A stretch of 64,000 bases of DNA. Origin: a virus. Its lineage: Duplodnaviria > Caudoviricetes. The DNA lies in the IMG/VR virus record IMGVR_UViG_3300031998_000003, positions 160,001 to 224,000 of that record. The stretch is one strand, 5' to 3'. The notes under the pieces are model-generated. The model made no database searches and was not told the DNA's origin. It saw nothing but the letters and a program-made list of their open reading frames with translations. Positions 1,922 through 63,016 of this stretch are shown here, in pieces. The stretch's first letter is position 1; every line of letters starts with the position of its first letter. Both the position numbers and the translations under genes were made by a program.

Positions 1922-2005
1922 GATTTCTTTGTGAAGATATATACATAATTTGTGTGATATCTGATACACAAGGATATCTAAAAAATCATAAGGAGGAACA
2001 TCCAA

Positions 2006-2908
2006 ATGTACGTACAAAACTTTCGCGAGGACCAGATCAGTTTTCTCGATAGTGTCGAACGCTATCTTGAAAAGGCTGGTATCAAGGTCCAAGCGATGGC
2101 ACCTCAGCAGCGTCTGGCAGTTATGACCAATGCTCGCAACACATTGTATTCATACGATGCCCAGATCATCGGTGACGTCGCTCGTCGTATCCTCAGATCC
2201 AATCTCGACAATGATACGGATGCACAGGCATTTATGCTGGCATTCTACTATCATGCTCAGGATCCTGCATTCATCACAATCGTGATGAAGTATCTCGAGC
2301 AGAGAAATGATCCGAGTCTGAATGGTGTGGTCGGTGCAGTTCTTCTGAAGGTGAGTGCGCAGTATATTGCGGAGCATAAGCCGAAGGATAAGAAGGACAA
2401 AAAGGACGACGAAACCACCGATGAGATCAAGGAGATTCGTCATATCCAGGCTGCAATCGAGCGTCTGCTCGGTACTGTTGCTGACACAGTTGTTCTGACA
2501 TGCGGAAACATGGCACATCACGAAGCACTCTTTGTCGCGGCATGCCTCGCGATTAACAGTGAGCAGACCATTATCGAGTTGGTGAAGGCTGACCTTCCGG
2601 TAACAGCTGTCATCTTCGATAAGATCATCACTGATCCGAGTTGCATCATCAAGGGTGCACTGCTTCTGAAGAAGAGCGATCTTCCCACGAAGCTCAGCGC
2701 AAACCAGACTGCATTCCTCAACTCTATCAAGAACTGGTTGTTCAAGAAGTTGAATGATACAGTCGAAGACGCTGTACTGCTTTATACCTATTTGGTCGGA
2801 GTATACGGTTCTGTGAAGCCCGATTTGTCTCCGCTGTATATCCAGATCAAGGATTGCGGAACAAGCTATCCGAATCTGCTTACTGTGGCCAAGCAAATTA
2901 CAAATTAA
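2006..2908 (+). CDS. hypothetical alpha-helical protein (300 aa)
   Basis: AAGGAGG SD; long ORF with biased codon usage. Confidence 0.85.
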   Translation: MYVQNFREDQISFLDSVERYLEKAGIKVQAMAPQQRLAVMTNARNTLYSYDAQIIGDVARRILRSNLDNDTDAQAFMLAFYYHAQDPAFITIVMKYLEQRNDPSLNGVVGAVLLKVSAQYIAEHKPKDKKDKKDDETTDEIKEIRHIQAAIERLLGTVADTVVLTCGNMAHHEALFVAACLAINSEQTIIELVKADLPVTAVIFDKIITDPSCIIKGALLLKKSDLPTKLSANQTAFLNSIKNWLFKKLNDTVEDAVLLYTYLVGVYGSVKPDLSPLYIQIKDCGTSYPNLLTVAKQITN

Positions 2909-10402: not shown

Positions 10403-12523
10403 ATGAAGATTGAGAAAACAACTACAGGTGTTATTATACGCGAACCATCGGATGAAATCAAACGGAAGTGTCTGCAATACTTTTCGTTACCGAATCCAGT
10501 ACGAGAATTCTTCGTCTATTGTAAGAAGGATCCTGATTACGAGAAACTTGTATCATTCATGCGTGATCATGACATCATCTATATCACATCAGGTTTTCTA
10601 AATATCAAGGACAAGGTTATTGAGTCATTGAATGTTTCGTCCGAAAAGCCGATTCAAACACCACGACTCATAACACTTGACATGAATCGTGAACCCCGTT
10701 CTCAACTGCAAAGAGACTGTATCGAACTGCTGACTACAGCAAAAGAGAATAAGATCACAGTCGAGCTGAAACCTGGAACTGGAAAAGCAGAGCCGTATTC
10801 CAGAAAGATCCCGACACCAACAAAAGCCGGTTTTACGTTGATGGGTGATCTGAAGATTGGTGATTACGTCTTTGCTCAAGATGGTACACCGACAAAAGTA
10901 ACGGGTATCTTTGAACAAGGTGAACAAGACATTTATAAAGTGACATTCCAGGATGGTCGTGTAGCATACTGTCATGAAGAACATCTGTGGACTGTGAGAC
11001 GAAATGATTGTTCAACTTGGGAAACGGTCATGACAAATAAGATGGATCTATCTGTGGATAATTTCGCTATTCCCTTATGCGAACCAGTTCAATATAATGA
11101 CAAACCATTTGTCGGGTATGAATGCGGATCTGTGAATGAAACGATATATCATTCAATGAAAGATTCATATGTATGTTCACCACCCAGTCGTATTCAGTAT
11201 CTATTTCAGAGCAGAGGGATTGGAACGGAAGGTGAGTTCCAGTGTGATGAATTGTACGCATACAATATATGGCTTCCAATGTTTTATCAGATGGGATATT
11301 CGGCGTACTATTTGGAGAATACCATCCATTATTCAAAACCGGAATCGTTAAAAATCAAATCTATTGAATTCTCACATCGAGAAAAATGCAGATGTATTAT
11401 GGTTGACAATCCTGAACATCTGTATCTGACTGAAGATTTCATTGTAACTCACAACACGTTCATCGCATGTTACTCTGCTGCAAAGCTTGGTCTGAAGCCT
11501 CTGATCGTTGCTCCGACATCTCTATTGAAGAATCAATGGATTGACAATATCGTAGAACTCGGTATTGACAAATCCGATATTGCAACAAAGATCTGGGATG
11601 CTCCTGACAAGAAGGTTTGTGTTGTTACAATATCCTCCCTGGAAGGAGCAATCCGTGATGACTGGAATGGTCTTCTGAAGACACTGGATGCTTCCGGTTT
11701 CGGTATCAAGGTTATCGATGAAGCACATCTCCATTTGAAGGGAATGCTGAAGTTCGATGCATTGTGTAACATCAAACACAACTGGTACATGTCAGCAACA
11801 CTCGGACGTTCATCAGCAGATGAAGACAGGATCCTGAACCGTGCTCTTGGAGATGCCAAACGGTTTGTTGGTAATGCTGCATATGAAGAATATCAGAAAG
11901 AGTACGTGAATGTCTATCTTCAGGACATCTACTACTACCCATCCAATAAATTATGTGAAGCATGTTTCAAATACGGCTCCAAAGGTTTGATCCGTTCATC
12001 ATACTACAACATGTTGATGACATACCATAATGGTGTTCCGTTTATCAAAAACATCATCACAATGTTGAAGCGTGCGAAATCGATCATTGATTATGATGGA
12101 AAGATTCTACTGTTGGTACCATTGTTATCGATCATTGAACAAGTCGTGAAAGCAATGGATCAAGATCCTTTCTTCAAGCAGTATTCGTATTCTGCAGTCG
12201 ATGGTTCAATGCCATTGTCTCAACGTCGCGAAGCGATGGAATCTGATTTCATTCTATCAACATCTCTTTCCATGGGAACTGGTGTTGATGTATCGAATCT
12301 AGGGGTGGTTGTCAACTTTGACCAATACTCTTCTTCGATCATCGGTGAACAGATCTTCGGACGTCTTCGCGACCGTGGTAAAGAGACATACTACATCGAC
12401 GTATGTGATGTTGTTAAACAGGCCAGAATGTTAACACGATGGGGACAAAAACGTCGTATCTTGATTCCATATTATCCTGGAGCAAAACGTGATATGAAAC
12501 GGTTCCCTGCTATACATTCATGA
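10403..12523 (+). CDS. SF2 (UvsW-like) DNA helicase containing an intein
   Basis: Walker A PGTGK|T (split by intein), LIVAPT..LKNQW, DEAH, MSAT, GTGVD, QIFGRLR. Confidence 0.9.
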   Translation: MKIEKTTTGVIIREPSDEIKRKCLQYFSLPNPVREFFVYCKKDPDYEKLVSFMRDHDIIYITSGFLNIKDKVIESLNVSSEKPIQTPRLITLDMNREPRSQLQRDCIELLTTAKENKITVELKPGTGKAEPYSRKIPTPTKAGFTLMGDLKIGDYVFAQDGTPTKVTGIFEQGEQDIYKVTFQDGRVAYCHEEHLWTVRRNDCSTWETVMTNKMDLSVDNFAIPLCEPVQYNDKPFVGYECGSVNETIYHSMKDSYVCSPPSRIQYLFQSRGIGTEGEFQCDELYAYNIWLPMFYQMGYSAYYLENTIHYSKPESLKIKSIEFSHREKCRCIMVDNPEHLYLTEDFIVTHNTFIACYSAAKLGLKPLIVAPTSLLKNQWIDNIVELGIDKSDIATKIWDAPDKKVCVVTISSLEGAIRDDWNGLLKTLDASGFGIKVIDEAHLHLKGMLKFDALCNIKHNWYMSATLGRSSADEDRILNRALGDAKRFVGNAAYEEYQKEYVNVYLQDIYYYPSNKLCEACFKYGSKGLIRSSYYNMLMTYHNGVPFIKNIITMLKRAKSIIDYDGKILLLVPLLSIIEQVVKAMDQDPFFKQYSYSAVDGSMPLSQRREAMESDFILSTSLSMGTGVDVSNLGVVVNFDQYSSSIIGEQIFGRLRDRGKETYYIDVCDVVKQARMLTRWGQKRRILIPYYPGAKRDMKRFPAIHS
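10787..11455 (+). mobile_element. class-3 type mini-intein (223 aa) with decayed endonuclease region
   Basis: Begins AEPYS directly after GTGK and ends IVTHN before T(+1); block B CHEEHLW, block F CRCIMV, block G THN give the W-C-T triplet; no intact LAGLIDADG motif. Confidence 0.9.
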
Positions 12524-12535
12524 AAGCAAATACAT

Positions 12536-12750
12536 AATGATAATCCCTGCAGGAATGAGGGTACAGGTGTAGGCCACCACCTTCATCTTCCAATGGAATC
12601 ACTGGTATTGAGCTCACCGTGAGATCCATTGGAGGATATGACTCATTCCACATGGATTGCTCTCCCGTCCTTCTGGCTTTTCAAGAGTCATTTTCAAGAT
12701 TCCTTTCGGTTTGTGCGGTGGGGCTTTCGCCCCACCAATCAAATTCTTCT
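12536..12750 (+). ncRNA. candidate structured ncRNA A with own terminator hairpin
   Basis: TAATCC/GGATTG, GGAATGAG/CTCATTCC and 13 bp ATCTTCCAATGGA/TCCATTGGAGGAT stems; G-U pairs favour + strand; ends in GGTGGGGC-TTTC-GCCCCACC (12717-12736); no credible ORF. Confidence 0.6.
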
Positions 12751-12763
12751 TTAACGGTTTAAT

Positions 12764-12921
12764 AATCCGGGGTGTTCTGGTCAACTATGTTGACACCTCT
12801 CTCGTTCAGGGAGTACGTGCCTCCCTGTGCCGCGTGCGGGCGCGGCGGCCTCCGCTTTAACGCCATGTGTGATGTTCCTCCTAAACATACGCGCATAATA
12901 CACCATTCGGCACCCCGGATT
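12764..12921 (+). ncRNA. candidate multibranched ncRNA B with exposed CCUCCU loop
   Basis: Late motif AACG-GTTTAA-TA puts +1 at 12764, the first base of an 11 bp closing stem AATCCGGGGTG/CACCCCGGATT; four internal hairpins; G-U pairs favour + strand. Confidence 0.7.
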
Positions 12922-12929
12922 TCATATAT

Positions 12930-12964
12930 ACAGTGTGGGGCTTCGGCCCCACACTGTGTCTTTG
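12930..12964 (+). terminator. cUUCGg terminator hairpin after ncRNA B (may also stop the convergent terminase transcript)
   Basis: ACAGTGTGGGGC-TTCG-GCCCCACACTGT 12 bp stem. Confidence 0.8.
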
Positions 12965-13002
12965 ATTGCCGAAAAGCACCCCTACTCAGAATTATTTTTT
13001 TT

Positions 13003-15153
13003 TTAGAATGAACCATTAATATCTACAAACCACGATGGAGAGAATCCTTCCTGAGCAGTCAATGAGACTGGTGCACGTTCCTGTTGAGTACGATATTGTT
13101 TGTTATAGTCCATTGGAGAATAACCATATTCATCAACACCGTGTTCTCTGAAATATCCCATCGGATCTTGTGAGATCGTGTCATGTAGGAGCTGCTCTTC
13201 ATATGGTGCAGGTACATCTGGAAGGACCATGTTGTTTACAACAGCTTCAGTGATGTCATCCACGTATTTCTCAATAGCAGCTGTCGCACCTTGGAATGTA
13301 CTTTTTTCTTTAATGATTCCAAAACGCTCAATATGATCACCATAGTACCAAACAAAGATAGCATGATTGTATGCCATGACCATGTCATCATGGAAACCCT
13401 CTGCAGCCTCAATCTTACCAGTCTTTGAGCGTACAAGATTCGTGATATCCTTGGACAAATACTTCGATGTTAGTAAATGTCTATAGTCCTTCACATGAAC
13501 CTTCAACAGATCGAACATGCTGGTTCTGACAGACGGTGTGACATATGTGCCGATATATCCTTTTTCTTTTGAACGACGCTTCATAACTTCTTCTGGAGTT
13601 TCCTTCATGATTGCGTTCTTAGAAATATCCAATCTCGGATCATGATAGAATCTATATTCAATCTGGGTTTCCTGGATTAGATCGACGATTGCCTTACCGA
13701 TAGAATTTGTTTCAACACAGAAGATACCCTTTGGGCACAACTTTGCAATCTCTAGAATAATCCGCATCAGATCAGTTGGTCCGATGAATGGGGAGATTAG
13801 CTCACCGACAACCTGCATTGTATATGGATGAACGATGCAAATCGCTGTATTGTCTCCATTACCACCGGCAGCAACGTCAATACCAATCAGATATGGGATT
13901 GTTGTGTCGAAATACGGTGTAGATGAGTTGATGTCCGGAATCAGGATATCATGTTTATAGACATATAGATGAACCTTCTTCAGCAGAAAGATATCGTAGT
14001 CTGGTTCTCTGACATTCTGAACAATGTAGTCAATATCTTCCTGACGGAACAGTACTGACTTCGAACCACGGTATCTCTGAAGAAGAACACCTCGACGATA
14101 CTCATCCAGTTTATCAAGACGCACTGCTTCATTATATTGTGCTCTTAACCAAGCTTCGTCTTTTCGTAATTGCTTGTAATTGAATTCAATGTAGAGTGAC
14201 GTAACAGGTTGTGGATTACCATTCTCATCAATTGTATGCATACCTGCAAAATACTCTTTGAGCTCCTGCTCCGTGAAGTCATACAATTGTTCTGAGAATA
14301 CTGGTGTCATATCGATCATGTGCTGTGCCGTTCTACCAGTTTCTGTTTCCAAGTCACCAGGAGTCGAAAGCAGCATAACACATGTACGTCCACCTGTCTT
14401 CGCCGCGATTTCACGTCCAGAGATGATAGCAGGCATCGCACCTTCCATAACGGATGCTTGATACGGAATGTACTCCCACTCTTCAAGCATTGCTGCAAAT
14501 ACAGTGAAACCACGCATCTTGTCCTTCGCTTTGACAACAGAGTCTGCTTGAGATAGGATTGTGATGGATGTACCGTGTTCATCATATTTCAAAGACTTTG
14601 TTCCAGGAAGCTTCTGTCGACCATACCATGGATTCATATATGGTGGTAGTGCACAAATATAATCACGCAACATTTCAGCAGATTCCAAGCAACGGTCTTG
14701 TCGAATATGCATCATTGGAATTTCGATATTTTGATATTCAAATACAAACATGTACTCGAGTAATAGTGTACACCAGGTAGACTTATGCGTCTGACGAGGC
14801 TGACATAAGATGACATCGATACTATGGATGAAACACCATATGAGTGCTAGCGATGCACGTGATAGAATTGGTGGTAGTTTACCAGCACCACGAACAGGAA
14901 CTTTCGCAACTTCTCGGAAGAAATACCAAGGGTTCTGTTTACATTCAATACAGACACGGGCAATGTCTTCTTGTGAAATATTTTCATCATATGCATCAAT
15001 ATCTTGAACACCGAGTTCCGGATGTTTTACTTCTAGCATGAAATACCAGTTCTTGATACCGAGAACTTTCAACTCTTGTGCGGTTAACAAGAACGATTTG
15101 TTTCTTGTACCAAAATCATAGTACCGATTTCCGATTCGTCGGATATCGCTCAT
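13003..15153 (-). CDS. terL: terminase large subunit
   Basis: NPWYFFRE, Walker A-like PRQTHKS, Walker B-like AMLEE, LSTPG coupling motif, nuclease IGIDVA, VETNSIG, HDDMVMA. Confidence 0.9.
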   Translation of the reverse strand: MSDIRRIGNRYYDFGTRNKSFLLTAQELKVLGIKNWYFMLEVKHPELGVQDIDAYDENISQEDIARVCIECKQNPWYFFREVAKVPVRGAGKLPPILSRASLALIWCFIHSIDVILCQPRQTHKSTWCTLLLEYMFVFEYQNIEIPMMHIRQDRCLESAEMLRDYICALPPYMNPWYGRQKLPGTKSLKYDEHGTSITILSQADSVVKAKDKMRGFTVFAAMLEEWEYIPYQASVMEGAMPAIISGREIAAKTGGRTCVMLLSTPGDLETETGRTAQHMIDMTPVFSEQLYDFTEQELKEYFAGMHTIDENGNPQPVTSLYIEFNYKQLRKDEAWLRAQYNEAVRLDKLDEYRRGVLLQRYRGSKSVLFRQEDIDYIVQNVREPDYDIFLLKKVHLYVYKHDILIPDINSSTPYFDTTIPYLIGIDVAAGGNGDNTAICIVHPYTMQVVGELISPFIGPTDLMRIILEIAKLCPKGIFCVETNSIGKAIVDLIQETQIEYRFYHDPRLDISKNAIMKETPEEVMKRRSKEKGYIGTYVTPSVRTSMFDLLKVHVKDYRHLLTSKYLSKDITNLVRSKTGKIEAAEGFHDDMVMAYNHAIFVWYYGDHIERFGIIKEKSTFQGATAAIEKYVDDITEAVVNNMVLPDVPAPYEEQLLHDTISQDPMGYFREHGVDEYGYSPMDYNKQYRTQQERAPVSLTAQEGFSPSWFVDINGSF

Positions 15154-30711: not shown

Positions 30712-30874
30712 GTAAAACACTCCTTGCTCTGTAAATCATAAACTTGTATTTCAATCGATTTACATATTCACCCATTGAGTACCACCTTCTTTCAATGCAC
30801 GGGTTCATTGAAAAATTGGAATATTCAGGCCCAACCCCTTCATATTCAAAATAATGATATACATTCATAAATAT

Positions 30875-31026
30875 AAAAAAAAATATGTGCGGGCCGAAGC
30901 CCGCACGCAAAAGAATTCTTGGAGGCGTCACATTTCTGTGACAACCCATGGACAACGGAAAACGTAGAAAACATACGTTGGGAATTCTTCACACGGCAAG
31001 TGAAGAAAGGTTCATTTCATGAACTT
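30875..31026 (-). ncRNA. candidate ncRNA C: four short hairpins with C/U-rich linkers plus cUUCGg terminator
   Basis: Late motif AC-AAATTT-GTAA (31036-31025); hairpins GTTCAT/ATGAAC, TTCTTCAC/GTGAAGAA, AACGTA/TACGTT, GTCACA-GAAA-TGTGAC; terminator GTGCGGGC-TTCG-GCCCGCAC + T9; no credible ORF. Confidence 0.65.
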
Positions 31027-31048
31027 ACAAATTTGTCGTCATCGTATG

Positions 31049-31057
31049 TATATTATT
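31049..31057 (+). promoter_or_regulatory. early-type promoter motif TATATTATT
   Basis: Same 9-mer at 36615, 37858, 51361 and TATATCATT at 20644 and 30861(-), always intergenic at the head of a transcription unit. Confidence 0.7.
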
Positions 31058-31133
31058 AAATCGGATAGGGAAGGTGTATAACTTCTAACCGCCTGAACTA
31101 ACTTTTACAAACCATCTATAGGAGGATACAGCA

Positions 31134-59200: not shown

Positions 59201-61372
59201 GACTACGCAATTGTATGGAAACAGCCGACAAACCGTCTCGGATTTAAACCAGACCGTGAAACGCTTAAGATCAACCCGGATGGATCGGTTGGTGTTCTAA
59301 CTGCTGTGACGCAATACAAAAAGGGATCTGTATATCACAAGAATCAGATGGTTGAATCTGGTGGTAAGGTCTATATCTGTATCAAGGACTATTTGTCGTC
59401 AACATATGACAAAAATGTTCATGACACTGTCATTGCGGAAAACATGCCATCCATGTACACAGATACACCGACATATGTATCACCCGACATGTATGGTGCG
59501 ACAGATGATATCTATTATGCGGAGTCAGTTCAAAGGGATATGGAGCTTGGTTATCTGAGCAACAGATTCTCAATGGAAGCTGTTGTAGAATGGGAAGCGG
59601 GTCAATCATATGCATATGGACAACTGGTTCAATACATGGGTTACCTGTATCTTGTCATCAAGAGCTACGGTGATTACAAGTCAATCTCGATCGAAGATGA
59701 CATCGATAACGGCTATCTGAGCGATGCGTTCAATACTGGTAAACGTAAGATCATGTATTTCCGTGATGTACGTGGAAGAACGTTTGAATTTGACCCAATG
59801 GGTACAATCAAACAGCGCAACAACGAAGAGAAGTATGCGAATGATCCTGCAAAACTGAAACGCATTCGCGAATACGAATACGTGAAGCTTGGCCCTGGTC
59901 TACGTATCACCGGTGGTTCACTCCCGCCCGAGGTTGAATGCAATAGAACAGAACTTAGAGCTTCGCTTCTTGAAGAAGTTGAACGTATTTCCGTTGCAGA
60001 AGAAATCATGTATGCTCGGACACTGGATCCAACATTCGGCTGCTCCTCCAAGTTTGAATATCAAGATAATGCTGTGATGAATGCTGATCCATTTGTACCT
60101 GGTCAACAATATCATCTCGGAAAACTGCTGAGATTCGGTTCATATGTTTATATGTGTATCAAGAACTATGATGCGGATCCTGACAATCAGTATTATGCAT
60201 CAGATTCGGCGGTTACTGACATGGAAAATGGTTATCTGACAACATATGACAAGATCTATGATAATGCCGGAACAATTGAAGGACTCACTTCAATTGAAGA
60301 TGTTATTAACATGGATGAATCGTTCCTTGCAACAATCGAAACCGTTGGTGAGAATGTTGATGAAGCTATTATCAAGAATACTATTTTGAGCAAAGATAGT
60401 ACCTTGGTTGAGCTCCGTACTTTCAAGGCAACACTCGATACAATTCGGATGCAACTTGAAGATCCAAATGTATTCTTCCCGATGAACAAAGAATTCTTGT
60501 TGGATGACTGGAGAACTCTGCAAAATCGTGTTCGTGCGATGGTTCTCACAGCAAACAACAAAAAAGATTCGACAGAGTTGTATCAAGAGCTGGTCCAGAA
60601 ATGGTTTGGTAATGGTTCAACTGTTCAGCCAACATTCAAAGCAATTCAAGCTGCAACCAGTGACTTCATCAAGGTCGAGATTCGTACGCTCGAGTGGTTG
60701 TTTACCACATGGGCTACGAAAGTCAGAAACTCTTCCGAACTTGCTGCTACATTCATCGACGATCAGAACAACAATAAGTGTGACTATTGTGCATGTGGTG
60801 ATTCCGATGTTATCTGCAACCACGAGTGTGCACACTGCACTAAGAATCCTGAGAACAATGAAAACGCTTACTGGGCATATGTCCAAGTTGACGTTGGTGA
60901 TACACATGACGCTGTTGTTTACGATAGCCTCAACACTGAGACACATCGTGAACTCTTCAGAATTCCATATGGTACTCGTACAGTCTGTATTCCACTCAAT
61001 GCTTCTGCTGACTGGGTTAAGGTTGCACTCAACGGACAGGTTGGATATGCTCTCAAGTCTAGCTTCAAATTGGCTCAAGTGTTTAGTCAGGTTCCTGAGA
61101 CAGTCATCACAGCATCTGTCAATATCTTTGACACATATGACGCAACAGGCCGTGGTATCACGCTTTATAATGACAACATGACTGTATCTGATGAGACAAA
61201 GATTGGTGTATTCCATACCTATGTGACAAACATCCCGAGAAGCACGGTACAACCTGATGAACGTGGATGGGAGATTCTGAATAGCGATTGGACGCAGATC
61301 ACTCTCATGAATGATGACGGTAATGGATATACAACTGGCTACGTTGAGACAGCTAGAATGATTTTCACGTAA
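56291..61372 (+). CDS. large tail fibre/adhesin with CBM5/12-like repeats and C-terminal SH3b-like domains
   Basis: VNSVNGRTGVVVLTSEDVGLGNVDN fibre motif; three Y/W-x-x-G-x-x-Y...VY repeats; DWVKVALNGQVGYA SH3b-like segment. Confidence 0.7.
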   Translation: MSMDKVQLKQEELLDGQVVLSDINPVTNTKSIEDSANGLPMTETISRMWSAINNKLSRHVNSVNGRTGVVVLTSEDVGLGNVDNVSYEEIKQWVLDTFDELFGEGHFRLYASITEAKVDAAAHGKEYNNVPFYAKSGEPITKDIDGVTQLIQDYRAYIGYFVWNASTGHVDIGDMKAINVVGWSDNSIVYVKDEDETFRGNTTTLPIGGIGVNIHVQEDALFVRNPDGIKSESGLAIDKSKVVPRVYYFSQIYRGHDTTYTNPEHPDNVYINSAHNGFLWDEGQGASYKGPEISIMIDGVTASGTHYLQLDSAYHVADYRVGDLIICNFNGEFSDRGTESDVRLVPEQSDKQFVFRNTSIGVITSAPSLDHPDDPYSVSFNAILPRVGYGLRLIDTHQDDVVQDKEIALYIANSGNSTPVFNATPFNTRKDMNTEQNPSGVKDPLSISWGPHITVPWDFDEGGSSGRRVTIKGGLLMEMDRTLCIMPMNMVRAGNRATDDDGPMGAEYTFMFDGDPGERTTRPYGSRIAGNWHHPYIYHDDDDPTEAYSNNKTLLSVNLTKIIREDTVTSHGSYRSFYNMSGLRVDWGTDVAYNGGDETHNNTIVEGLHNITNAFSTENGRNYFGLVDGYDSAGSPYKTLVPDFLGKENGTNYMRFSGGISVNIGRFLEIRPAVTYNSQEYYDCGKVQLRAGHGTEETTWYRIMLRPGDRWNVNIFIDRPYTDWSSFMKIWDADPENTDPDYQFFCVPKFVANFLLQPGTKHPIGYDDWLCDEEPFLRNNIIDVPTVSEFELIEDSYFPLTDEEPPVNWFAGTYTSYFAKDASTDTFSRIEGIPDPRYTPSGLRGPDYHANKYYRFAPPEWPVSIPVSSSDESFDAYNVTFPDDTTQSPFDVVVTAKYAGGTREYHEIFFTKQGDKYVPVNFTVTDVIDEYPTPDRQFSGYVWHKTSPEFQPGTFYRLKRKRVDPEILAADYAIVWKQPTNRLGFKPDRETLKINPDGSVGVLTAVTQYKKGSVYHKNQMVESGGKVYICIKDYLSSTYDKNVHDTVIAENMPSMYTDTPTYVSPDMYGATDDIYYAESVQRDMELGYLSNRFSMEAVVEWEAGQSYAYGQLVQYMGYLYLVIKSYGDYKSISIEDDIDNGYLSDAFNTGKRKIMYFRDVRGRTFEFDPMGTIKQRNNEEKYANDPAKLKRIREYEYVKLGPGLRITGGSLPPEVECNRTELRASLLEEVERISVAEEIMYARTLDPTFGCSSKFEYQDNAVMNADPFVPGQQYHLGKLLRFGSYVYMCIKNYDADPDNQYYASDSAVTDMENGYLTTYDKIYDNAGTIEGLTSIEDVINMDESFLATIETVGENVDEAIIKNTILSKDSTLVELRTFKATLDTIRMQLEDPNVFFPMNKEFLLDDWRTLQNRVRAMVLTANNKKDSTELYQELVQKWFGNGSTVQPTFKAIQAATSDFIKVEIRTLEWLFTTWATKVRNSSELAATFIDDQNNNKCDYCACGDSDVICNHECAHCTKNPENNENAYWAYVQVDVGDTHDAVVYDSLNTETHRELFRIPYGTRTVCIPLNASADWVKVALNGQVGYALKSSFKLAQVFSQVPETVITASVNIFDTYDATGRGITLYNDNMTVSDETKIGVFHTYVTNIPRSTVQPDERGWEILNSDWTQITLMNDDGNGYTTGYVETARMIFT

Positions 61373-61396
61373 TGAGTTTAGGAGGGACATTGTAAC

Positions 61397-63016
61397 ATGA
61401 TACAATTCACAATTAAACTCAGACCGGACTTGTATGTGAAATCTGAGAATAACAAGATTACTGTTAAGATTTCGCCAAAAGCGTATAATGGTCTGAAAAT
61501 TGAAGGTGATGGATTGTTCATGGAAGATCAATGTGGGTTCAATGATGATGGATTCATCGACCAATCCGGAGATGGACTCCGGATTGGTTTCGATGGTCCT
61601 TATTCTGAATTGAAAGAAGACGGTAGCTATCCCAAACCGGGAATGATTGCTGCAGATACGGTCGTTCATCACATTTATACCATGAACAGTGACCTGAAAA
61701 CACTGGATGGATATCGGAGCGTGGATTGCATTCTTCCCGGAGATATCATCCGTGTTCCGAAAGCCGCGCTTGTTGAACAGGCTGCACAAGAAGAGCTTGA
61801 TGGTATTGGTGCTGTTGAAGAAGCGAATGAACTAGCTGAGGAAACCACCTCACGCGGTGTTTCATTGACTACAGGATTCAAACCTCGACTCGAAATCCCC
61901 GCAAACACAAATAAGTTCTACATTCTAAAAGGTAATGGAGGATATTCACCATGTATTCCAGGTAGTCCGTTACATCCAAAACTGACTGCTCTGAACAACT
62001 GTGTCGGTTATGCCTGCGGACGTTTCCATGAAATCGATAATCGTACGCAGATGGACTATTATGTTCCACGAAATCCACCGCCAACATTCAGAGATGTCAA
62101 AGCTGCTGGAAAACTGGAGACTGGAACAGAACCAAAAGTTGGAGCAGCTGTATGTTGGACTCACGGTGGCGATAGTGGTCATATCGCCATTGTTGAAAAA
62201 GTTACCAGAGATTCCAATGGAAAAGCTACCACAATTGTCACATCCGAATCTGGATACGGTTGTCAGAATTCATTCTGGACAACAAATCGTGAACGTGGTA
62301 ATGGTGGTTGGGGAAGCACGCTCGTTGGTTTCTTTTATCATCCAAATGTGAATGCTGATGGATATGATGAAGAGACTGGTGAAGATGATGCTAAGACACA
62401 CTATGTTCCAATCAATGCTGTCAAATACAGTGTTAAGGAAGAAAATGGTGCATACTACATCTATGACGGTAGTACGAACACTGGTATTGTCATTGTCAAT
62501 AAGAGCTACAAGCATTCTAAGAATTTCGCAAATGGTGTCAATTCTGAAGCACAAAAAGCACTCAGCGAAATGCAAGCTGCTGCGAAAAGCGCTGGAATTA
62601 GCCTTCCGGTTGCATCTGGTTACAGAAGTTATTCTTCACAGAAATCCATATTCGAGAATTATGCCAAAAGCGAAGGCGGCGGTTCACAAGGTTATACAAA
62701 AGCTGAAGCATATTCAGCAAGACCTGGTCACTCCGAACATTCTACTGGATTGGCATTTGACCTTGTGAAAGCTAGCAGAAGTATCAATGGCTCCAAAGAA
62801 ATGAAATGGATTCTTGAGAATTGTTGGAAGTATGGCTTCATAAATAGATATCCAGCTGGTAAGCAGGATATTACTGGATATGATCGTGAAGACTGGCATG
62901 TCCGCTATGTCGGAAAAGAATGGTCCAAGAAGATCTATGATTCTGGTCTGTGTTTGGAGGAATACTTTGGTCTTCCTTCCATGTATACATCAGACTATGA
63001 TTCATCCAAGTATTGA
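61397..63016 (+). CDS. peptidoglycan hydrolase: CHAP domain + M15B (VanY-like) peptidase, probably virion-associated
   Basis: CHAP NCVGYACGR...PKVGA...GHIAIVE; M15B SGYRSY..Q, ARPGHSEHSTGLAFD, EDWHVRY. Confidence 0.9.
   Translation: MIQFTIKLRPDLYVKSENNKITVKISPKAYNGLKIEGDGLFMEDQCGFNDDGFIDQSGDGLRIGFDGPYSELKEDGSYPKPGMIAADTVVHHIYTMNSDLKTLDGYRSVDCILPGDIIRVPKAALVEQAAQEELDGIGAVEEANELAEETTSRGVSLTTGFKPRLEIPANTNKFYILKGNGGYSPCIPGSPLHPKLTALNNCVGYACGRFHEIDNRTQMDYYVPRNPPPTFRDVKAAGKLETGTEPKVGAAVCWTHGGDSGHIAIVEKVTRDSNGKATTIVTSESGYGCQNSFWTTNRERGNGGWGSTLVGFFYHPNVNADGYDEETGEDDAKTHYVPINAVKYSVKEENGAYYIYDGSTNTGIVIVNKSYKHSKNFANGVNSEAQKALSEMQAAAKSAGISLPVASGYRSYSSQKSIFENYAKSEGGGSQGYTKAEAYSARPGHSEHSTGLAFDLVKASRSINGSKEMKWILENCWKYGFINRYPAGKQDITGYDREDWHVRYVGKEWSKKIYDSGLCLEEYFGLPSMYTSDYDSSKY

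Follow-up and report, generated by a model that had tools for sequence, protein, structure and literature searches.

The locus between position 12764 and about 12964 raises the question of whether a short intergenic stretch of a jumbo-phage genome encodes a regulatory RNA and, if so, which start regions such an RNA would recognize. The window, i.e. the whole stretch of 64,000 nucleotides that was analyzed, comprises bases 160001-224000 of an IMG/VR record of 248.7 kb with 42% GC, which is estimated to be 92% complete. Since the genome encodes split pieces of a multisubunit RNA polymerase and a tubulin-like protein besides the large terminase and a helicase-like protein, it is that of an AR9/phiKZ-style jumbo phage. 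The locus lies inside the 480-nt gap separating the convergent helicase and terminase genes. According to the initial annotation, it gives rise to a late RNA with an anti-Shine-Dalgarno (anti-SD) loop, whose defining target would be the start region of a CHAP/M15 lysin gene 48 kb away.

As outlined in Table 1, the locus can be described as a closed multi-helix junction followed by a terminator, and the structural part of the initial annotation was largely corroborated. The promoter-like motif (AACG at 12753-12756, followed by GTTTAA and by TA at 12763-12764) indeed ends with A12764, the first base of the closing stem P1. The stem itself, described before as 11 bp long, is present but extends over 13 bp. 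Downstream, the proposed cUUCGg terminator was found as a UUCG-loop hairpin at 12928-12959, for which a terminator call was obtained on the + strand alone. The CCUCCU motif is exposed in the loop of hairpin P5, between the arms AUGUGUGAUGUU (12865-12876) and AACAUACGCGCAU (12884-12896), as had been claimed. Because of its two G-U pairs the fold of P5 is specific for the + strand, likewise in agreement with the earlier description (-8.8 kcal/mol for the hairpin alone on the + strand vs. -4.1 kcal/mol on the - strand). For the complete 201 nt of the + strand a minimum free energy (MFE) of -94.3 kcal/mol was calculated (z = -7.66), and none of 200 shuffled sequences was as good; the - strand of the same region gave z = -6.0. 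The opening of the P5 loop costs 0-1.3 kcal/mol, and the 5' arm of P5 is the complement of the spacer and the AUG of several start regions. Overall, the features of a small RNA (sRNA) gene computed in silico are the promoter motif at +1, the + strand terminator and the lack of a conserved ORF on either strand. Inspection by eye furthermore revealed a possible pseudoknot between GCGGG of the P4 loop and CUCG of the CU-rich stretch.

Table 1 Coordinates of the sRNA locus, its neighboring genes and the two start regions discussed most.
Feature	Position	Strand	Evidence or remark
Helicase-like protein	10403-12523	+	
Promoter-like motif AACG-GTTTAA-TA, predicted +1 A12764	12753-12764	+	Matches AR9 late consensus except fourth base
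sRNA core, multi-helix junction closed by P1	12764-12921	+	MFE, z-score, covariance models, covariation
P1 5' arm AAUCCGGGGUGUU, partner 12909-12921	12764-12776	+	Pairs 6, 8, 9 and 12 changed in a compensatory manner among members
P2 hairpin GUCAAC-UAU-GUUGAC	12780-12794	+	Own lineage: window, L130, L128; absent in L005, L021, L011, L112
Single-stranded CU-rich stretch ACCUCUCUCGUU	12795-12806	+	Kept in window, L005, L130, L128; partly in L022
P3 hairpin	12807-12827	+	Stem maintained with differing sequences in all members
P4 hairpin, conserved GCGRG loop	12829-12846	+	Loop GCGGG or GCGAG maintained
P5 anti-SD hairpin, loop CCUCCUA 12877-12883	12865-12896	+	CCUCC invariant in or at the loop in 9/9 members
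Single-stranded tail AAUACACCAUUC	12897-12908	+	Conserved
Intrinsic terminator, 14-bp stem, UUCG loop, U-rich tail CUUUGAUUG	12928-12969	+	Terminator call
Large terminase	13003-15153	-	
Start region of ORF 2006-2908, best-supported conserved candidate target	1984-2008	+	12-nt exact complement; orthologues match own sRNA
Start region of CHAP/VanY hydrolase, candidate phage-specific target	61376-61399	+	Best raw duplex; accessibility rank 11; not conserved

The element belongs to a family of nine members, comprising the window, six IMG/VR jumbo-phage contigs and two metagenome contigs. Relatives were retrieved via the terminase protein, and nhmmer then located the element in five further IMG/VR contigs. 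The seventh member was a covariance-model match in a 277-kb genome reached via the ORF 2006 protein, and a metagenome scan contributed two close relatives, with four of its ten matches being dropped for lack of a model match. Common to all members are the promoter motif, P1 (AAUCCGG.../...CCGGAUU), P3, P4, P5 with its CCUCC loop and a GC-rich terminator hairpin. Most of them also carry the tail segment CAUAAUACACCAUUCG, with no difference between the window, L005, L021 and L011 and a close variant in L112. P1, P3, P4 and P5 are preserved by compensatory changes, resulting in four covarying helices; the P4 stem, for example, occurs as GCCGCG/CGCGGC, GUUGCG/UGCAAC, UGCCGA/UCGGCA, UCGCCGU/ACGGCGA or CCAUCAU/AUGAUGG. 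The model-based alignment of five members has 90.4% of its cells paired and contains 15 pairs that changed on both sides, a number that was reached by none of 500 shuffles, while slid controls gave 0-6 such pairs. This alignment was fitted to the covariance model, and the hand-anchored helices agree with it; both were used in place of MAFFT alignments of the family, which were structurally poor.

Every copy with readable upstream sequence is located 3' of the same helicase-like gene and on the same strand, following it either directly or after its short ncRNA-1 spacer, and several members have the promoter motif overlapping with the stop codon of the helicase gene. In L005 (3048-6130, compared with 12764-15153 of the window) the large-terminase gene is inverted and the sRNA keeps its place by the helicase gene; its linkage is with the latter gene and not with the terminase gene. 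Searches with the covariance models R1 and R2 recovered a single copy per genome, and no paralogue was found with them in the window's own genome. Inspection of the syntenic site in eleven relatives of the terminase locus that are more distant revealed no homologue. The whole records G001-G004 gave no match with R1 or R2 and G005-G009 none with R1, and among the more distant relatives, one of them a complete genome of 231 kb, no copy was detectable, so that the family seems to be confined to one clade.

Comparison with Rfam 15 yielded no match at the gathering threshold over the whole window, and at E <= 10 the region 12500-13010 gave five weak, chance-level matches, none of them to a 6S model. 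ARAGORN found neither a tRNA nor a tmRNA, and the GenBank phage collection contained no match to the sRNA by blastn and megablast. From its sequence, the locus is best filed as the first representative of an RNA family absent from the catalogues, of a kind that is already known. Pattern searches of IMG/VR produced candidates that were rejected: for the pattern CATAATACACCATTCG the eight matches read were coding or unrelated sequence, several of them encoding an HNTPFE-type motif, and seven extra matches to two P1-pair patterns were all chance occurrences in coding DNA.

With respect to expression, the AR9 paper (PMC5312081) gives the late-promoter consensus as AACA-(6N)-TA/G with the final base as the start site. 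In all nine family members the motif AAC[AG]-N6-TA ends at the first base of P1, with AACG in seven of them and AACA in L022 and L006; the motif of the window is one base off the AR9 consensus, and those of L022 and L006 are identical to it. No overall enrichment of AAC[AG]-N6-TA upstream of genes was observed in three complete genomes (11 occurrences in G0 vs. 13.7 expected from shuffles). Its position relative to start codons is non-random: in the three complete genomes 8/11, 12/16 and 9/19 occurrences lie about 25-32 nt before a start codon. Among the products of the genes behind it are giant proteins, one protein with tail and tail-fibre PHROG hits and an RNA polymerase beta piece. By analogy with AR9, the "late" timing of the sRNA is a reasonable inference. 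Two SD classes were seen in G000, G010 and G011, namely (A/T)GAAAGGAG before about 20-30 genes and AAGGAGGAA before about 70. The GAAAGGAG type is enriched directly behind AAC[AG]-N6-TA in the three genomes (Fisher P = 0.002, 5.5e-5 and 0.048). As a separate observation, a repeated motif, CATATATATATTATTAATATGA, occurs just 3' of the sRNA terminator in L005, L021, L022 and L011 and in intergenic positions in L007, L008 and L015. It resembles the AR9 early-promoter consensus AAATATATATTAT-(6N)-G, and in the window just a shortened form, TCATATATAC, lies between P1 and the terminator.

Concerning the targets, the alignment of the reverse complement of 12864-12886 with 61376-61399, on which the lysin proposal was based, could be reproduced, and the gene at 61397 does encode a hydrolase with CHAP and VanY/M15 domains. 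For the ranking of targets, every start region of 242 heuristically called ORFs was scored. In terms of raw duplex energy the lysin start region ranks first to second of the 242 (-31.5 and -32.7 kcal/mol; top raw hybridization at -31.5 kcal/mol). Its 10 contiguous Watson-Crick pairs including GUUUA are unique among the start regions, and among 200 decoys in which the flanks were shuffled and CCUCCU was kept, only one reached its raw energy. This advantage did not persist when accessibility was taken into account: after opening costs of 10.9 and 10.4 kcal/mol (the latter for the lysin site) the lysin falls to rank 11 with -9.8 kcal/mol, which pairing of the loop alone with any accessible AGGAGG would also achieve. 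Furthermore, a lysin homologue is absent in the complete relative G011, which speaks against a role as the defining target, and the G010 homologue has the start region AAGGAGTGAT, from which the extended complementarity is absent. UAAAC on the 3' side of the window's P5 loop, the source of the GUUUA match, is not conserved among the members either. The lysin is therefore unlikely to be the main target of the sRNA, and a duplex of about 23 nt with 61376-61399 that limits CHAP/VanY hydrolase synthesis appears improbable as the main role of the RNA; at most, the start region at 61376 would add one target specific to this phage. Read by eye, the lysin start region (61360-61400) may itself fold via GUAAUG/CAUUGU, placing the SD in a 13-nt loop.

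The initial annotation had also listed a 12-nt exact match before ORF 2006 and matches of 8-9 nt before ORFs 2924, 31134 and 33500. All of these are present, the former as AGGAGGAACATC at 1991-2002, and the secondary idea that the RNA might repress other AGGAGGAAC-type genes fits the predictions better than the lysin does, with the ORF 2006 orthologues as the recurrent candidate partner. The P5 arm is the complement of the consensus AAGGAGGAACA...AUGGC. Its fifth-best duplex amounts to -28.6 kcal/mol, compared with -21.4 +/- 1.3 kcal/mol for the decoys, none of which reached it (0/200), indicating that the arm is complementary to several start regions and not to one. When accessibility was included, the top candidates were ORFs 73189 (outside the window), -11827, -73280, 2924 and 2006; in the three complete genomes the ORF 2006 family ranked 5, 4 and 5 and the -11827 family 2, 18 and 1. 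However, dozens of start regions already reach about -10 kcal/mol by loop-only pairing and the extended duplexes, with -10 to -16 kcal/mol, hardly exceed this value, so that thermodynamics alone does not single out targets.

Covariation between sRNA and target was analyzed for two complete and three partial relatives that had been retrieved, and G015 was compared as well. In all six phages for which both sequences are known, the ORF 2006 start region is complementary to the phage's own sRNA. The own matches are AGGAGGAACATC in G0 (12 nt), AAGGAGGAAAACAC in G10 (14 nt), AAGGAGGAAAACACA in G13 (15 nt) and GGAGGAACAC in G11 (10 nt), whereas the match in G12 consists of AGGAGGAAA and AUGCCAUG, separated by a small internal loop (9+8), and that in G015 of 10 + 4 nt with a one-base bulge. 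In G0 (tied), G10 and G13 the ORF 2006 match is the longest among all start regions. Differences between the phages, i.e. an AA insertion and a T/C exchange, are carried by both the sRNA and its putative target. In the comparison of own with swapped duplexes only six of 720 permutations were as good (1/24 with one phage per lineage); in G015 the own pair (-20.4) is weaker than a swapped pair (-28.2). A rank-product test of conservation gave P = 0.0025 unconditioned and P = 0.15 when confined to the 12 triplets of orthologues with GGAGG in each member. More generally, GGAGGAAAA follows the SD in 14% of the G10 start regions vs. 1% in G0, and GGAGGAACA exhibits the reverse pattern (7% vs. 0%); both patterns match the sRNA of the respective phage. 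The post-SD motif A2-4CA[CT] precedes the ORF 2006 orthologue in 6/6 sRNA-bearing phages vs. 1/5 relatives without a detectable sRNA, whose post-SD sequences are AAATTTTT, AACATTC, ATTTG, ATTTAG or AAGTAAAA; as the sRNA-bearing phages form a clade, this association is not phylogenetically independent.

A conserved 300-aa protein, present in at least 11 related jumbo phages, is encoded by ORF 2006-2908 (+) itself, directly after the tubulin-like gene. The AF2 model of this protein is confident and all-alpha (pLDDT 87, pTM 0.82). No function could be assigned to it from Pfam, PHROGs, the ESM Atlas or Foldseek against PDB and BFVD; Foldseek returned weak similarity to uncharacterised Myoviridae proteins only and no PDB match. 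For the other top candidate targets the family search gave none.

As judged from the sequence evidence above, the locus likely encodes a trans-acting anti-SD sRNA, for which ORF 2006 and similar start regions appear to be better candidate targets than the lysin. The more specific reading, in which a stand-alone sRNA gene on the + strand (12764 to about 12964) acts by pairing with a few phage start regions, stands in our estimation at about an even chance. According to this proposal, the RNA is probably a product of the phage's non-virion RNA polymerase initiating at the AAC[AG]-N6-TA promoter, would fold as the P1-closed junction and would end at the intrinsic terminator. The P5 loop would then offer CCUCC(U) as a seed, from which pairing could spread into the 5' arm of P5, the complement of the A-rich spacer (AACA or AAAACA); in this phage the predicted complementarity extends to AUG(GC). 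As such pairing would cover the SD, it should block 30S binding and thereby repress translation. The start region of ORF 2006-2908 would be the recurrent partner across the family, and a few other AAGGAGGAAC-type start regions, including those of ORFs 2924 and 33500 and of three genes outside the window, are further candidates.

Several other explanations have to be weighed against this pairing mechanism. The RNA might be a structural or protein-binding molecule, i.e. a scaffold, a decoy or a ligand of a polymerase or ribosome factor, in which CCUCC, GCGRG and the tail make protein or tertiary contacts and the complementarity to start regions is incidental. Such a role is consistent with the nearly invariant AAUCCGG/CCGGAUU of P1, with a multi-helix junction that is more elaborate than most base-pairing sRNAs, and with three conserved single-stranded elements besides the anti-SD for which no mRNA partner is predicted: the target search for partners of the tail, the CU-rich stretch and the P3 and P4 loops gave only chance-level 10-11-mers, so that the GCGRG loop, the CU-rich stretch and the tail may have a protein-binding or scaffold role. 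(The P4 loop GCGRG and the tail AUAAUACACCAUUCG were seen to be conserved in sequence, with no partner found.) We nevertheless consider this explanation rather unlikely, since the complementarity of the arm to several start regions is far above that of the decoys and tracks each phage's own sequences, and since no Rfam family, 6S RNA included, gave a match above chance level even at E <= 10. Still further from the pairing mechanism is the view that the locus is no RNA gene at all, being instead a 35-aa antisense protein (- strand, ATG at 12866), a DNA-level element or a bidirectional terminator between convergent genes. The - strand does read AGGAGG-N10-ATG, and the site does lie between the convergent helicase and terminase genes. 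The antisense ORF, however, spans 35 aa in the window and 17 or 66 aa in L005, is absent in L021 and L011 and comprises 4 aa in L022 and L006. Conservation of this peptide had been named at the outset as the observation that would speak against base pairing; with four of six members having no such ORF or one of 4 aa, the peptide is not conserved, which favors the RNA reading. Moreover, the compensatory and G-U changes fit a + strand RNA, the element still lies beside the helicase gene where the terminase gene is inverted (L005), and the conservation of the loop sequence exceeds the needs of a terminator. Taken together, this renders a non-RNA origin extremely improbable.

A different objection accepts the anti-SD loop and questions its selectivity. 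An abundant loop could titrate any strong AGGAGG-type SD of phage or host and spare late mRNAs with GAAAGGAG, which would make it the RNA counterpart of a T4 RegB-style shut-off of non-late translation. The invariance is limited to CCUCC and the adjacent U-rich bases, and loop-only pairing already reaches dozens of start regions, as would be expected for such a broad regulator. The preference of genes behind AAC[AG]-N6-TA for GAAAGGAG and the identity of these genes, which include giant, tail-related and RNA polymerase products, point in the same direction, and strong predicted targets make up 0/35 genes behind AAC[AG]-N6-TA vs. 7% of the other genes, a contrast that is not significant alone. 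On the other hand, stoichiometric titration requires very high sRNA levels, and the covariation of the arm with particular start regions suggests a specificity beyond that of a pure SD sponge; we regard broad titration as unlikely. A related possibility is a temporal switch, in which the late sRNA would target AAGGAGGAAC-type ribosome-binding sites (RBSs) of non-late phage and possibly host genes and spare AAC[AG]-N6-TA late mRNAs with GAAAGGAG. If the sRNA recognized an RBS class, the phage would sort its own mRNAs by the class of their ribosome-binding site. This switch is hinted at by the two SD classes, not established by them, and its probability is low in our view. Pairing with a few phage start regions remains the preferred reading.

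The Staphylococcus aureus RNAIII and RsaE/RoxS are Gram-positive trans-acting sRNAs that pair C-rich loops with SD sequences. They share with the RNA described here the stable structured fold with its own promoter and terminator, the unpaired C-rich or anti-SD seed loop and, as predicted here, several targets, pairing over SD and start codon and translational repression. In contrast to them, the present RNA is phage-encoded, has a promoter of the type used by the phage's own multisubunit polymerase and has the phage's own mRNAs as candidate targets; it exposes a full CCUCCU instead of UCCC or CCCC and has no sequence or Rfam relationship to them. T4 RegB is an endoribonuclease protein cleaving GGAG SDs of a class of phage mRNAs during a temporal switch. 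The analogy to it is functional only, as the RegB protein cleaves whereas the RNA would occlude, and class selectivity is merely hinted at here. 6S RNA is of similar size and has its 5' and 3' ends paired as a closing stem; unlike the long interrupted rod with a central bubble of 6S RNA, the body of the present RNA is a multi-hairpin junction.

Most of the known regulatory RNAs encoded by phages come from temperate coliphages. Jumbo phages are not mentioned in a 2025 review of phage-derived sRNAs (PMC12197685). The c4 antisense RNA of phages P1/P7 and sar of P22 are phage RNAs whose loops pair around the RBS of a phage mRNA and block its translation, c4 acting within its own operon and controlling the antirepressor in temperate phages (PMC12197685). 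Like c4, the present RNA is phage-encoded and has a loop predicted to be complementary around the RBS of a phage mRNA. Unlike c4, it belongs to a jumbo phage, lies unlinked at a distance of 10-48 kb from its candidate targets and matches no Rfam family above chance level at E <= 10. The late transcription units of AR9 resemble the locus in the promoter motif and the position of the predicted start site, the split multisubunit RNA polymerase genes are present, and relatives have AT-rich, early-like motifs resembling AAATATATATTAT; a difference from the AR9 late consensus is the G at the fourth base in most family members. The AR9 paper (PMC5312081) reports antisense RNAs, and a text search of it gave no occurrence of the term "noncoding".

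The locus represents a conserved, structurally supported RNA family in phages with their own multisubunit RNA polymerases, and it provides a testable CCUCC seed together with a short list of candidate targets. If the proposed pairing holds true, a phage sRNA would exert post-transcriptional control over phage genes in the AR9-like jumbo group and would offer a handle on ORF 2006, a conserved protein lacking a functional annotation beside the tubulin-like gene. If, moreover, the class switch proved true, it would constitute a new viral way of timing translation.

Two further structured stretches were observed in the window. The first, ncRNA A/1, occupies 12524-12750 (+), from the helicase stop codon to the sRNA promoter, and ends with its own GC hairpin at 12716-12738 and a pyrimidine-rich tail, AUUCCUUUC. 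A search by nhmmer gave no homologue of it in G10-G14. In the close relatives L130 and L128 the comparison covers its last 30 nt, upstream of the sRNA, and the L005 spacer resembles it in length and layout. The second is a third candidate ncRNA at 30861-31060 (-), which exhibits GACA-N6-TA, several hairpins and an unpaired GCCUCCAAG and has a UUCG terminator followed by a T9 run at its 3' end. For this candidate nhmmer found matches in G12, G11, G10 and G13 (E = 3e-9 to 0.013), indicating that it is conserved at least in part.
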